Shown here one piece after another: positions 41,989 through 47,210 of a stretch of 64,000 nt of DNA (positions are counted from its first letter, which is position 1; every line of letters starts with the position of its first letter). The DNA comes from an uncultured Clostridia bacterium. Lineage in GTDB: Bacteria > Bacillota > Clostridia > TANB77 > CAG-508. The notes under the pieces were generated by a model. It was not told where the DNA came from. It searched no databases and saw only the letters and a list, made by a program, of their open reading frames with translations. A program made the position numbers and the translations under genes. The stretch spans positions 50,315 to 114,314 of the forward strand of contig CAKPQH010000003.1 of the NCBI GenBank assembly GCA_934178475.1, in the 5' to 3' direction.

Positions 41989-42789
41989 ATGAGAAGAGAT
42001 ATAAGAAGACAAAAAAGAATGGATAATACAGTTATTTTGAGTATTGTGTGTGCAATATTAATTTTAGTTGGAATAGTAACATATGTTATTAAAAATTATT
42101 TAGAAAAAGAAAATAATTCAAGCTTGAATTTGCAAGAGGATCTTGCAATATTAGAAAATGCTGATATAAAAGATACAAGTACTGAATATGGTAAAACTGT
42201 TGAAGAATCTAAAGAAGAGATTATAGATGGTGAAACTTTAAAAGAAGAAAAAGATTCTACTAATACTAGTAAAGCAGAAAATACAACTTCTACTAGTAAG
42301 AAAGCAGAAACTAAAAAAGAAGAAAATAGTACAAATGTTGTAACTACTAAACCTGTTCAAGAAGAAAAGAAAAAAGAATTAACATTCAAAGCTCCAGTAA
42401 AAGGTGAGATTTTAAGAGAATATGCAGTTGAGAATTTAGTATATTCTGAAACTTTAAAAGAATGGATAACACATAATGGTATTGATATAAAGGCAGATAA
42501 GACAACTGTTGTAACAGCAGCAGCACCTGGTAAAGTATATGCAATAAAAAATGACCCTAGATATGGCCTAACTGTTATTATTGAACATGATGATGGATTT
42601 AAAACAGTATATTCAAATCTTTTAACAGCTGAATTTGTGGTTGAAGGTGAGAATGTAGAAGAAGGTCAAACAATCGGTACAGTTGGTAGCTCAGGTGCTT
42701 TTGAAATAAGTGATGATTACCATTTACATTTTGAGATGTTAAAAGATGATGCATATGTAAATCCAACAACATATATTAATTTTGATTAG
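41989..42789 (+). CDS. M23/LytM-family metallopeptidase-domain membrane protein (N-terminal TM, Lys/Glu/Thr-rich linker). Possibly SpoIIQ-like
   Basis: C-terminal LytM domain (HNGIDI, GKVYAI, HLHFEM). The SpoIIQ idea is a guess based on architecture only. Confidence 0.6.
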   Translation: MRRDIRRQKRMDNTVILSIVCAILILVGIVTYVIKNYLEKENNSSLNLQEDLAILENADIKDTSTEYGKTVEESKEEIIDGETLKEEKDSTNTSKAENTTSTSKKAETKKEENSTNVVTTKPVQEEKKKELTFKAPVKGEILREYAVENLVYSETLKEWITHNGIDIKADKTTVVTAAAPGKVYAIKNDPRYGLTVIIEHDDGFKTVYSNLLTAEFVVEGENVEEGQTIGTVGSSGAFEISDDYHLHFEMLKDDAYVNPTTYINFD

Positions 42790-43048
42790 TATTATTGAAA
42801 TGTAATGAAATTGTAAAATAAATGTAAAAGTAATGTTGTTGACAAAAGGTAAAAGAATATGTAAAAATAGATGTAGAAAGAAAAAAAGTAAAAAATGCAA
42901 AAAGTAGAAAATACGTATCTCCTGACGCTCTAAGAGAAAAAACAATAATTTATTAAATGAAGCAAATAGAACAAATATAAGAAATAAGGCTAGCTTATTG
43001 TTAAAATGGCAATAAGTTTTTAGTCTTATTAAGGAGGATAAGATAGAA

Positions 43049-44327
43049 ATGAAAAAAGTATTAAAAAATGTAAAAGGTATAACATTAATTGCTTTAGTAA
43101 TTACTATAATCGTGTTATTAATATTAGCAGGTATATCAATAAGTATGATATCAAGTCAAGATGGAATATTAACGAAGGCAAAAGATGCAAAGTCTCTAAT
43201 GAAAATAAAAACAGAAGAAGAATTGGTACAATTAGCAGTACATAATGCTTATATAGAAGAAGAAGGAGATTTTGAAAAAGAAACAGCAGAAGAAGAAATA
43301 AAAAAGAGTTTGGTCGAAAACGGTTTAAGTATTACAGGAGATAATTTTAAAAAAGTAAATGAAAAATGGTATTATGTAAGCAGTTTAGGAAAAAACTATG
43401 AAATTAATAAAGATGCAAATGTAAGTATAGTAGAAGAATTACCTAAAATTGATGGTTTTATTGATGGAATATTATATTATAACGGAGAACCTTTTTCTGG
43501 TGACTGGTGGTATAGTCCGGAAGACAAAATTCAAAATCCGCCAAGTATATTCCTTATAAATGGAAAATATGCAAAATATCAAGAAGGTAAGATAGATGAG
43601 GGGTGGAGCATTGATAATTCATATTATATGTTTGGAGAACTTTACACTGGTATTGTAAGACCTACTGGAGGTTGGTACTATGGAAGATTAGTTAATGGCG
43701 AAATGGAAGTTCCAGCTCGGACCTAACGGAGGAGCTTATGATGCTAATTCTTTGATTGTAAATAATGGTAAGAGATTTGATGGAATTGCATATATGGCTG
43801 GTTATAGAAGTTCTATGTATTCTGAAGTAATAGATGGATTATTGCAAAAAACATTATATTCTTGTTTGCTTCCAACAACAGAAATAGAAGTTATAGAAGA
43901 AGATGAAAAAGGAAGAAAGAAACGTAGAAAGAAAAAAATAAAGGACATAAAAGAGGGAGACAAGGTATTATCAGTAAATCCAGAAACGGGAAAACTTGAA
44001 GAAGATGTAGTAATATATGCAGACGGAGATGAAAATAAAAAATATAATAAATTTGAAATATGGACATTTAATGATGGAACAGAAGTAAAAACACTTCATA
44101 AACATAGATTTTATAATATAGAAAGACAAGATTTTGTGTATATACAAGAATGGAATATAGGAGAACATGGATATAAAGAGAATGGAGAAATTATAGAATT
44201 AATAAGACATAAAGTGGTAAATGAGGAAGTTCAACATTGCACGATATTTACAGAAAAATGGAATAATTATTTTGCTAATGGAGTATTGACAGGAAATAGA
44301 AATTCTATAAAAATGAAAATTTTATAA
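43049..44327 (+). pseudogene. Cassette copy 1: pilin-like-leader protein with WYY cell-wall-binding-like repeats and a C-terminal Hint-like domain. It is interrupted by a +1 frameshift near 43695-43726
   Basis: Two overlapping ORFs lie in different frames (43049-43726 and 43695-44327). The N-terminal 35 aa are near-identical to 45117-46907. The second ORF carries a Hint block A (CLLPTTEIEV). The intein F/G-like end is degenerate (NGVLTGN instead of VHN). Confidence 0.5.
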
Positions 44328-44343
44328 TATATGAAAGTATAAA

Positions 44344-44387
44344 AAAGAACTCTAATTGGATAAAGCATCTAATAAGAGTTCTTTTTT
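44344..44387 (+). terminator. Rho-independent terminator after cassette copy 1
   Basis: aagaactct...agagttctt plus T6. Confidence 0.6.
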
Positions 44388-44395
44388 AGGATTTT

Positions 44396-44519
44396 ATGCA
44401 GATTTGTTTTCACTTTTATTTAGTTTTTCATATTCTTTACATTTAATTTTATAATCCATTTGCATACATAAATATTTGTAATAACTATATGCTTGCTCAT
44501 ATCTGTTATTATTAAACAT
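44396..44519 (-). pseudogene. Truncated copy (C-terminal 41 aa) of the small convergent ORF found intact at 46992-47210
   Basis: The reverse-complement translation MFNNNRYEQAYSYYKYLCMQMDYKIKCKEYEKLNKSENKSA is about 90% identical to the C-terminus of the 72-aa protein. Confidence 0.45.
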
Positions 44520-44720
44520 GATGATGAATTTAAAACAGTATATTCAAATCTTTTAACAGCTGAATTTGTGATTGAAGGTGAGAATATAGAAGAAGGTCAA
44601 ACAATTGGTACAGTTGGTAGTTCAGGTGCTTTTAAGATAAGTGATGATTATCATTTACATTTTGAGATGTTAAAGGATGATGCATATGTAAATCCAACAA
44701 CATATATTAATTTTGATTAG
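44493..44720 (+). pseudogene. Duplicated 3' fragment (last about 66 codons) of the M23 peptidase gene
   Basis: About 94% aa identity to residues 200-273 of the 41989-42789 product. There is no plausible start and the track 'start' is a TTG. Confidence 0.75.
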
Positions 44721-44876
44721 TATTATTGAAATGTAATGAAATTGTAATATAAATGTAATATAAAAATAAAATAGAATATTATTGACAAAACGTATAAGAG
44801 TATGTAGAATTATATGTGATAAGAAAAGAGGTAAAAAATGCAAAAGATAGAAAAACATGTATCTCTTGACGCTCTA

Positions 44877-44904
44877 AGAGAGAGAGAGAGAGAGAGAGAG
44901 AGAG
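44877..44904. repeat. (AG)14 dinucleotide microsatellite in the 5' leader of cassette copy 2
   Basis: Read directly. The homologous position in copy 1 (about 42928-42940) reads agagaaaaaacaa. Confidence 0.95.
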
Positions 44905-45116
44905 CAACAATTTAATAAATAAAATAAATAGAATAAAGATAAATATAAGGAATAAGACTAGCTTATTGTCAAAATGGCAATAGGTTTATAGTTTTATTTT
45001 TGCGTTTTTTTGCCAAGAATGGAAGGGAGGAAAAATATATAGAATGGAAGAATAATAATCATAGTAGAATGAATAATAAAAATAATAAAGTAAAGGAATA
45101 AAAAGCTAAGGAGGAT

Positions 45117-46907
45117 ATGATGAAAATGAAGACGGGATTAAAAAATGTAAAAGGTATAACATTAATTGCATTAGTAATTACAATAATTGTGTTATTAATA
45201 TTAGCAGGTGTATCAATAAGTATGATATCAAGTCAGGATGGAATATTAAAACAAGCAGCAAAGGCAAAACTTATGCAAGAGATAGCTCAAGTAGAGGAGC
45301 TACTCAACTTAAAAGTATTAGAAATATATTCAGCAAATTCGGACAATTTAGACAATGTAACAAATGGAACAATAAAAACAGCAGTAATGACAGAGATAGG
45401 TAAAATGGGATATGAGACAGAAGAGAAAACTACAACACAAGCAACAGTAAAAGGACTATTAATTCAAGATTCAACAGGAGCAAATATTGAAAATGTAAAT
45501 TTAATACAAAATGGAGAGCAGATTATAACAATCAAATTAGATACAGAAGGAAATACAAATTCAAAAACATATGTAATAATACAAAGTAAGAAATTTGAAA
45601 TTACGATAAATGACGGAACAGTAAAAATATCTAGAGAAGAGTACATAGATCAATCAGAAGACCAAGAAGCATATCAAATAAAATTAACACCACCAACAAC
45701 GGGTACTAAAATATATGTTGAGAATAATGAAATAACAGAGGAGACTAATATAGCAGATAATACAAATATAAAAGTCAAGGCAGGAGACAGCACAGGAACA
45801 TTTAATTTTAACGTACAAGAGTCCAAAAGTGGAACTTCAAGAGAGGTAAGTGTTAATGTAGAAGCTAATCAAGCATATGCTACGAAACTAACTATAGGAG
45901 TAAAAGATAATGCAGAAGCGACAATTACACCAGAAGGGACATTACAATTACAGGCAACGATAGAGCCACTAAGTTCGACAGACACAGTAACTTGGAAAGT
46001 TGAATCAGGAGATGGAACAATAAGTGATACAGGATTGTTAACAGCAAATAGTACTGCTACAGCAGGAAGTAAGATAAAAGTTATAGCAAAATGTGTAAGA
46101 GCAGATAATACAACATCAAATGTTCAAGGAACAATAGAAATAATGGTACAAGAAGAACTAATAGATATGAGTTCTTTTTATATTCAGCAGTCTAGTGAAA
46201 CTGCCCCATTATCTTATACAATTTCAGGTGACAGCCATGGATATGATATATATTATGCTCGAATGGGTATTCCGGTTGGTAGTTTAGATGAACTTATTGA
46301 ACATGAGAAAATTTATATGCCAGGAACTCAATTTACTGGGGGAAATAGTCATGAATGGTTATATGTATGGCTTTCGAAAGATGGTACAAATGTAAAATCT
46401 CAAATAAAAGTATTTGCAACTACGGTGTGGATGTGCTTTACAGAAGATACGTTGATAGAAACATTAAATGGTAGCCAAAAGATAAAAGATATTAAAATAG
46501 GTGAATTGGTATATAGCTACAATGAAAAAAGTAATAAAGTTGAGTTGAAAAAAGTTACAAATACATATATTCATAGAATAGAAGCTAATCTTTGTAGAAT
46601 AAAGGTGGGAAATGACGTTATAGATAGTACAACAAATCATCCATATTTTGTTAAAGATAAGGGATGGGTACTAGCTAGTAAATTAGAGAAAGGCGATAAT
46701 CTTATGGATGTAGGAGGTCAATCACTAATTGTTCAAGAAAATTCAATTATTAATAATGCTATAGTAGATGTATATAACTTTGAAGTTGAAGGGAATCATA
46801 ATTATTTTGTTGGCAAATCTTGTGTATTAGTGCATAATGCACCAGATGTTATTAACTGTTCATATGTAGGAACGAAAGAATTTGGAGATATTGTAACATT
46901 TGATTAA
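45117..46907 (+). CDS. Cassette copy 2: pilin-like N-terminal leader/anchor, central Ig-like (Big_2-type) domain region, and a C-terminal Hint/intein-like (BIL-like) autoprocessing domain
   Basis: The N-terminus is MKTGLKNVKGITLIALVITIIVLLILAGVSI. A Big_2-like segment reads TITPEGTLQLQATIEPLSSTDTVTWKVESGDGTISDTGLLTANSTATAGSKIKVIAKC. Intein blocks are A CFTEDTLIETLNG, B TTNHPYF, and F/G VYNFEVEGNHNYFVGKSCVLVHNA. A 22-aa tail follows. Confidence 0.65.
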   Translation: MMKMKTGLKNVKGITLIALVITIIVLLILAGVSISMISSQDGILKQAAKAKLMQEIAQVEELLNLKVLEIYSANSDNLDNVTNGTIKTAVMTEIGKMGYETEEKTTTQATVKGLLIQDSTGANIENVNLIQNGEQIITIKLDTEGNTNSKTYVIIQSKKFEITINDGTVKISREEYIDQSEDQEAYQIKLTPPTTGTKIYVENNEITEETNIADNTNIKVKAGDSTGTFNFNVQESKSGTSREVSVNVEANQAYATKLTIGVKDNAEATITPEGTLQLQATIEPLSSTDTVTWKVESGDGTISDTGLLTANSTATAGSKIKVIAKCVRADNTTSNVQGTIEIMVQEELIDMSSFYIQQSSETAPLSYTISGDSHGYDIYYARMGIPVGSLDELIEHEKIYMPGTQFTGGNSHEWLYVWLSKDGTNVKSQIKVFATTVWMCFTEDTLIETLNGSQKIKDIKIGELVYSYNEKSNKVELKKVTNTYIHRIEANLCRIKVGNDVIDSTTNHPYFVKDKGWVLASKLEKGDNLMDVGGQSLIVQENSIINNAIVDVYNFEVEGNHNYFVGKSCVLVHNAPDVINCSYVGTKEFGDIVTFD

Positions 46908-46991
46908 AACTGGTAACCAATGTATTGACAAGAAGAGAAAAATTCTAAACTAGATAAGATAGCTTAGAAATTTTTTCTCTTTTTTTATTAT

Positions 46992-47210
46992 TTATGCAGA
47001 CTTATTTTCATTTTTATTCAATTTTTCATATTCTTTACATTTAATTTTATAATCCATTTGCATACATAAATATTTGTAATAACTATATGCTTGCTCATAT
47101 TGCATTATTGGGTTAAACATAGGGTCTTTATATATATCGTTCATATCAAAATTATTTGGTATATTACCATAAGGTGAATATCCTTGAAATTCATTAAAAT
47201 CTTTTTCCAT
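46992..47210 (-). CDS. Small Tyr/Met/Asn-rich protein (72 aa) convergent with cassette copy 2. Function unknown
   Basis: It has an RBS aaggattgattt upstream on the minus strand. A truncated paralog sits after cassette copy 1. Confidence 0.4.
   Translation of the reverse strand: MEKDFNEFQGYSPYGNIPNNFDMNDIYKDPMFNPIMQYEQAYSYYKYLCMQMDYKIKCKEYEKLNKNENKSA

Follow-up and report, generated by a model that had tools for sequence, protein, structure and literature searches.

A hypervariable AG repeat in a short leader reading frame as the probable switch of phase-variable attenuation upstream of a surface-protein gene in an uncultured gut Firmicute

In Escherichia coli, the leader ORF of pyrBI runs through an intrinsic terminator, and a closely following ribosome blocks the terminator hairpin and causes read-through, the regulatory input being UTP-dependent pausing of the polymerase. 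In Helicobacter pylori, oipA and other outer-membrane protein genes carry CT/AG repeats in the signal-peptide region and are turned ON and OFF by slipped-strand mispairing, which shifts the reading frame. Clostridioides difficile cwpV provides a further example of surface-protein phase variation, in which an intrinsic terminator in the leader is controlled through site-specific DNA inversion by a recombinase. The system most similar to the one described here is that of the pil1 and pil3 loci of Streptococcus gallolyticus, for which it has been proven experimentally that a (GCAGA)n repeat located inside a leader-peptide ORF, followed by a stem-loop terminator, governs expression (PMC3894217). 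Short leader peptides, ending 39 nt before the terminator, result in low expression, and frameshifted long peptides, ending in or after the terminator, result in high expression, as the ribosome prevents the hairpin from forming (PMC3894217). In the literature that we searched, phase variation by a repeat in a leader peptide combined with a terminator has been worked out in only this one organism.

Here, we analyzed a 64,000-nt stretch of DNA (the window), a low-GC (~27%) segment of a Firmicute chromosome in which the genes are arranged in the order tpi, pgm, eno, an M23 peptidase gene, two "cassette" genes, ylbJ, and a PBP gene. Upstream of the second cassette gene lies an (AG)14 simple sequence repeat (44877-44904, plus strand), which is the sole long dinucleotide run in the window, the runners-up being (TA)5 and (AT)5. 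This tract probably acts as the switch in a phase-variable attenuator of transcription of the downstream surface-protein gene, a model that fits the full set of observations better than each of four rival explanations.

The elements of the locus follow one another in the order promoter, Shine-Dalgarno (SD) sequence, ATG, tract, hairpin, U-rich tail, and SD and ATG of the main gene. The promoter-like site (44782-44810, plus strand; 11 of 12 matches) consists of TTGACA (44782-44787) and TAGAAT (44805-44810), separated by 17 nt, and is followed, ~20 nt past the predicted transcription start, by the SD sequence AAGAGGT (44826-44832) and the ATG (44838-44840) of the leader ORF (together 44826-44840, plus strand). 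The peptide specified by this ORF begins MQKIEKHVSLDAL(RE)n; the AG tract, whose unit length is not divisible by 3, starts at codon 14, 67 nt after the -10 element, encodes (Arg-Glu)n, and ends 222 nt before the ATG of the main gene at 45126. Further downstream, folding and a terminator scanner point to an intrinsic-terminator-like element (44951-45012, plus strand) made up of a 48-nt bulged hairpin (44951-44998) with the outer stem AATAAGACTAG/(C)TAGTYTTATT and a U-rich tail, TTATTTTTGCGTTTTTTTG (44994-45012); it was the inner stem that the scanner, a simple one, flagged as terminator-like. The spacer to the main gene (45013-45125, plus strand) contains an additional SD-like GGGAGG (45025-45030) and the main-gene SD sequence AAGGAGG (45108-45114). 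Several of these elements had already been pointed out in the first-pass annotation, and they hold up well: the coordinates of the repeat were exact and its length is indeed unusual for the window; the block shared by the leaders of the two cassettes, TATCTCYTGACGCTCTAAGAGA, occurs twice in the window (at 42916 and 44860) and in 0 of 100 shuffles; promoter-like sites are present in both copies, reading TTGACA-17-TAGAAT in copy 2 and TTGACA-18-AAAAAT in copy 1; and the hairpin described as cttattg-N9-caataag exists, with caatagg (one G-U pair) as its 3' arm in copy 2, but forms only the inner part of the 48-nt hairpin.

The number of repeats determines where the leader ORF ends relative to the hairpin. 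In the window, with n = 14 (n mod 3 = 2), the ORF reads MQKIEKHVSLDALRERERERERATI followed by a stop (25 aa; 44838-44915, plus strand), the stop codon at 44913-44915 falling 35 nt short of the hairpin, and this frame is predicted to be OFF. Only with n mod 3 = 1 does the ORF continue through SNNLINKINRIKINIRNKTSLLSKWQ (44903-44983, plus strand; family members P0143 and P0144 of the small ORF) to a TAG at 44981-44983, in the 3' arm of the hairpin. Accordingly, the allele with n = 10, found on three metagenome contigs, specifies a 45-aa product that ends in SNNLINKINRIKINIRNKTSLLSKWQ and stops inside the hairpin. This geometry is common to all eight examined instances of the module described below: n mod 3 = 1 gives leader ORFs of 42-50 codons, or 36 codons in L039, and places the stop 5-42 nt inside the hairpin (8 of 8 module instances). 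In the two other frames (n mod 3 = 0 or 2), the stop is located 17-35 nt, mostly 28-35 nt, upstream of the hairpin (8 of 8).

The proposed mechanism comprises four steps: (i) a constitutive sigma-A-type promoter would give rise to a transcript of the short leader ORF (ATG at 44838) containing (AG)n; (ii) slipped-strand mispairing would frequently change n and, with it, the reading frame; (iii) with n mod 3 = 1, ribosomes would terminate inside the hairpin and block its folding, allowing RNA polymerase to read through (ON); and (iv) with n mod 3 = 0 or 2, translation would stop 17-35 nt before the hairpin, and the terminator would form, leaving leak-through only (OFF or low). The window allele, having n = 14, would be in the OFF frame. 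What the sequences show are the anatomy of the leader, its frame geometry, the multi-copy family, and the hypervariability of the tract; what we infer is where transcription starts, that the leader is translated, that transcription terminates at the hairpin, and that read-through depends on the ribosome. We propose n mod 3 = 1 as ON, and the other frames as OFF or low, because the anatomy of the leader matches that of S. gallolyticus pil1/pil3.

At the level of sequence, every feature by which a pil1/pil3-type attenuator would be recognized is found in the AG module. Both have a promoter, an RBS with ATG, a leader ORF with a repeat whose unit is not a multiple of 3 nt, a stem-loop terminator, and a gene for a surface structure; in both, translation in a short frame ends ~28-39 nt ahead of the hairpin and in a long frame within or past it, strains differ in their number of repeats, the genome has the device at more than one locus, and the host is a gut Firmicute. 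The stem-loop energies are -18.7 and -28.2 kcal/mol in pil1/pil3 versus -18 to -23 kcal/mol here. In contrast, there is no sequence homology between the two, the repeat (AG, 2 nt, versus GCAGA, 5 nt) and the peptide are different, and long frames represent one-third of the possible frames here and two-thirds in pil1/pil3. Unlike pil1/pil3, moreover, the AG leader is a conserved module present at at least six loci, it precedes genes for proteins with a prepilin-like N terminus and not sortase pili, and its in-frame ORF overlaps the hairpin itself. The two leaders are analogous, not homologous. A point against the model is that transcription and translation are weakly coupled in Bacillus subtilis; the S. 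gallolyticus case, which serves us as the analogy, works in a Firmicute despite this.

The other systems share single aspects with the AG module. As in pyrBI, a leader ORF runs into a terminator and the ribosome would block the hairpin, the input here being a heritable change of frame instead of polymerase pausing. In oipA-type genes the tract is inside the structural gene, whereas in the AG module it occupies a separate ORF ending upstream of the structural start and is proposed to act on a terminator; with respect to classical contingency loci, the AG tract is located neither in the structural ORF nor in the -35/-10 spacer. The likeness to cwpV consists in a leader terminator that is either formed or not, in a Clostridium relative, but cwpV possesses neither a repeat tract nor a leader peptide.

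The variability of the tract was assessed on contigs retrieved by exact-protein look-ups in ENA, which returned the locus from independent human-gut metagenome assemblies produced with several assemblers; the comparative data come only from these look-ups, because motif scans gave unrelated matches. On 15 gut-metagenome contigs, 99.8-100% identical to the window over 8-10 kb, n was 10, 11, 12, 13, or 14, and the tract was the only gap opening in full-length alignments of L001, L002, L004, L005, L007, and L009 with the window. Across 2,410 flanking nt, there were 0 mismatches among the window, L001, L002, L003, L007, and L009, with n = 14, 12, 10, 14, 10, and 12, respectively; the flanks of L005 and L008 were likewise identical, with n = 11 and 14, and L024, L025, L026, and L028 (n = 11, 11, 14, and 10) had 0-2 differing sites. 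Since near-identical flanks carry different values of n, changes in the tract outpace the accumulation of point substitutions by far, and they have occurred repeatedly. The (AG)14 run is thus a real, fast-mutating repeat, and the slipped-strand hotspot that the first-pass annotation had suspected is borne out by lengths that differ between strain contigs, with n = 10-14 on otherwise identical flanks from different metagenomes. The tract of copy 1 stayed constant at (AG)2 across the contigs, while that of copy 2 varied.

The leader is not confined to this locus. A small-ORF profile search yielded 26 clusters with products of 31-50 aa, which fit MQKIExxVSLDALRE(RE)0-5SNNL[VI]NK..NKTSLL with varying numbers of RE repeats. 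The module occurs at chromosomal sites that are unrelated to one another, among them those following recD2, dtd, a GH25 gene, and dpaA, on contigs that share their samples of origin with the window locus and match it in coverage, and it precedes at least five genes besides cassette 2, with tracts of (AG)10-18. The likeness of the two leaders in the window reflects this multi-copy module and is not independent conservation. Every downstream gene opens with ..G[IV]TLIALVITIIVL..SMISSQDG[IM]L and then continues into a different body; no mention of this constant N-terminal peptide turned up in a search of the literature. Because the same module precedes at least six different genes with a pilin-like N terminus, each locus would switch independently. 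Most paralogous modules were found by small-ORF protein search, which can return in-frame alleles only, the unbiased module instances being W2, the L040 type, and L027. The recD2-locus contigs are not biased toward in-frame leaders either, because they were found through the large protein: with an identical 483-aa product, n was 11, 18, 18, and at least 17, a related allele had n = 10, and the frame after the tract was still open.

The regulatory elements are retained along with the tract. The promoter-SD-ATG layout is repeated in six paralogous modules, with a TTGACA -35 and a TAnAAT-like -10 element at the same position in L029, L032, L036, L037, and L039, and GAGGT or GGGGT precedes the leader ATG by 5-8 nt in all intact modules. 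The hairpin is kept in every intact module, with folding energies of -17.8 to -23 kcal/mol across all modules, and 2 of its 21 predicted pairs show compensatory changes, covariation being thin because the paralogues are so similar. The terminator scanner made no call on L029 and L036, whose stems have bulges and whose U-tract contains an interrupting GCG. Hairpin and gene are only 25-45 nt apart in L029, L032, and L036; in L037 and L039 the spacer is long. Contigs L006 and L010, which come from different samples and assemblers, both start exactly at window position 45050, inside the spacer specific to copy 2; breakage of the assemblies at a paralogous repeat is likely, because L037 and L039 have similar sequence (ATGAATAATAATCA...) in their long spacers. 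On the single low-coverage contig L027 (1-470), a cassette-2-like gene, 98% identical from window position 45050 on, lies 3' of an RNase HII-like gene; its leader is only ~69% identical and has a 50-aa ORF of the same family with only (AG)3, and its hairpin is kept through compensatory changes. L027 may represent a non-switching version of the module.

The controlled gene of cassette 2 (45126-46907, plus strand) encodes a protein of 593 aa in which a prepilin-like hydrophobic segment at the N terminus is followed by a variable middle part and a PT-HINT domain (78.6 bits; cut-off, 27.7). Its ATG at 45126 is the one chosen by gene callers and fits the exact product on 16 contigs. The resemblance to prepilins stays below threshold: the N_methyl model PF07963 scored 17.2 bits against the cassette 2 protein, below its cut-off of 21.2 (E = 0.004), GspG and PpdD-type models remained far below their cut-offs on the controlled proteins, and the motif KG-ITLIA has Ala in place of the expected Glu+5. 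The N-terminal region is common to more than 4,000 database proteins. The architecture of the protein is unusual, with only ~21 residues past the C-terminal HN motif, and no toxin domain is recognizable after HINT.

The first cassette offers a view of the same module in decay. The copy 1 leader (42839-43048, plus strand) has kept a promoter-like site (TTGACA-18-AAAAAT, preceded by TG; 42839-42868) and the counterpart of the hairpin (42983-43030), but its SD sequence is mutated to AAAAGT, a 1-nt deletion follows the ATG (42895), (AG)2A6 stands in place of the tract, and the U-tail is deleted. The gene behind it (43049-44327) is split by a +1 frame change into ORFs of 225 and 210 aa overlapping at 43695-43726, at a site that contains no homopolymer. 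Both the split and the decayed leader are common to all strains examined, and cassette 1 looks like a pseudogene on account of them. In this sole dead copy, then, SD, frame, tract, and U-tail have been lost together, and the gene is frameshifted.

A neutral microsatellite, hypermutable but devoid of regulatory effect and simply carried along in a duplicated 5' module, is an unlikely explanation of these findings, even though any run of (AG)10 or longer slips and the 15 contigs, with 5 alleles in frame and 10 out of frame, show just the 1:2 ratio expected under neutrality. That ratio, about one-third of alleles in frame, is the expectation for phase variation as well. Against neutrality, at least six paralogous modules have kept, at the same codon, tracts of 10-18 units that are perfect and uninterrupted; the tract has collapsed in the dead copy as well as in a few members of the family (e.g., P0161 and P0167); the frame geometry with respect to the terminator is identical in all modules; and no comparable repeat exists elsewhere in the window.

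It could also be argued that the small ORF encodes a functional, diffusible protein of 40-50 aa that is itself phase varied by the tract, with the hairpin merely ending its transcript and the downstream gene being expressed independently of frame. The ORF has a good SD sequence and ATG, its 26 clusters preserve the MQKIE..VSLDALRE..SNNL..NKTSLL pattern, and an open frame as long as the n mod 3 = 1 continuation is improbable by chance, arising in ~2-4% of shuffles (P about 0.02-0.04). We nevertheless regard this explanation as improbable. A scan found no promoter-like site between the hairpin and the SD and ATG of the main gene, and the gap there is 25-45 nt in several modules; the differences among paralogous leaders are almost all non-synonymous, with no sign of selection on the peptide; the conserved nucleotides encoding NKTSLL are out of frame in L039; neither Pfam nor NCBIfam contains a match to the small ORF; and at least six near-identical copies, each with a different surface-protein gene, suit a cis-acting element better. 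Lack of family matches and mostly non-synonymous substitutions were also the grounds on which the small ORF was ruled out as a conserved protein and treated as a leader peptide. Among the leaders, it is the open frame and the conserved nucleotide blocks that persist, the peptide sequence itself being probably unimportant.

The first-pass annotation had proposed a leader RNA, here taken as untranslated, in which tract length alters structure, exerting graded control or acting as a riboregulator; such an effect might come from pairing of UCUCUU/CUCU with the repeat or from an RNA-binding protein, e.g., Hfq. CU-rich blocks just 5' of the tract can indeed pair with AG repeats in many registers, and the whole leader folds better than shuffled sequence (z = -4.4), but this z-score is carried by the terminator hairpin, and the tract lies 37 nt inside an ORF with a canonical SD sequence and ATG ~20 nt after the -10 element. 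No match to the leader was obtained with Rfam, either on the whole window at gathering thresholds or on 42700-45200 at E<=10. Scans for the leader motif TCTCYTGACGCTCTAAGAG gave 3 matches in 185,579 species genomes and 10 in JGI metagenomes, all in unrelated coding sequence of 36-69% GC, and 0 in viral contigs; the motif being absent but for such chance matches, the leader is not a widespread RNA family. A leader of this kind is therefore, in our estimation, highly improbable. What had been read as blocks of a free-standing riboregulator forms the body of a small ORF that has an SD sequence and ATG of its own and leads into a terminator hairpin, and for this reason it is the frame (n mod 3) that matters, and not the length of the leader or a gradation of its structure: of the switching proposed earlier for the cassette gene, the ON/OFF form remains plausible and the graded form is given up. 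The minimum-free-energy fold also pairs the SD/ATG region at 44828-44843 (GGUAAAAAAUGCAA) with the tail behind the hairpin at 44999-45014 (UUGCGUUUUUUUGCC), and a G/A difference at the GCC/ACC position in paralogues is compatible with this pairing, which may be trivial, the one side being A-rich and the other U-rich.

Finally, an internal promoter, with TTGACG directly 5' of the tract (44866-44871) as -35 element and the tract as a spacer whose n tunes the -35/-10 distance, is scarcely credible even though CTGACG-16-AATAAT in copy 1 scores 9 of 12, and it was ruled out on spacing, as the spacer would be ~28-45 nt with n = 10-18, a length at which no promoter functions, n would have to be ~4-5 for a spacing of 16-18 nt, and the scanner finds no such site in copy 2, where a much better promoter lies upstream.

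If the tract acts as the switch of an attenuator, the implications extend beyond the locus. Taking promoter, (AG)n leader ORF, terminator, and constant pilin-like signal sequence together as a portable cassette, we tentatively suggest that this uncultured, low-GC, spore-forming gut Firmicute may carry at least six such switches genome-wide, each gating a different surface or secreted protein independently, and that the result could be a combinatorial, heritable, and reversible surface repertoire driven entirely by repeat-gated attenuation, to which the abundant terminated leader RNAs or the (Arg-Glu)n peptides might add cross-talk between loci. That the same logic as in pil1/pil3 is reached from unrelated sequence suggests a recurrent design in gut Firmicutes, not a curiosity; particular to the present case are the dinucleotide unit, the proposed one-third of ON frames, and the spread of a single conserved cassette across at least six loci. 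In this uncultured commensal of the human gut, copies of the device are present at many loci and differ from host to host, and metagenomic reads could reveal, through n mod 3, which members of a whole surface-protein family are ON or OFF. Standard screens for repeats in annotated genes or promoters would miss such tracts, because they lie in regions annotated as intergenic.

The two cassettes of the window arose as a tandem duplication of ~1.9-2.6 kb, in which the whole cassette unit was doubled (42569-44502 and 44500-47100). The duplication also took the last 259 nt of the M23 gene with its 3' flank (95% identity to 42569-42827), leaving as a relic a 75-aa M23 peptidase 3' end at 44493-44720, and 123 nt of the downstream flank were copied as well, 44380-44502 matching 46978-47100. 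In the more divergent strain represented by L008, a full M23 gene is joined straight to leader 2 and cassette 1 is absent; this arrangement is either the ancestral state or the product of a deletion between the repeats. A 72-aa ORF with no family match (46992-47210, minus strand), located between cassette 2 and ylbJ, is kept in all strain contigs, its 5' part falling within the duplicated flank. Elsewhere in the window, a T-box leader (RF00230; 27138-27364, plus strand) scored 108 bits, above the gathering score, and is the sole Rfam match in the window.
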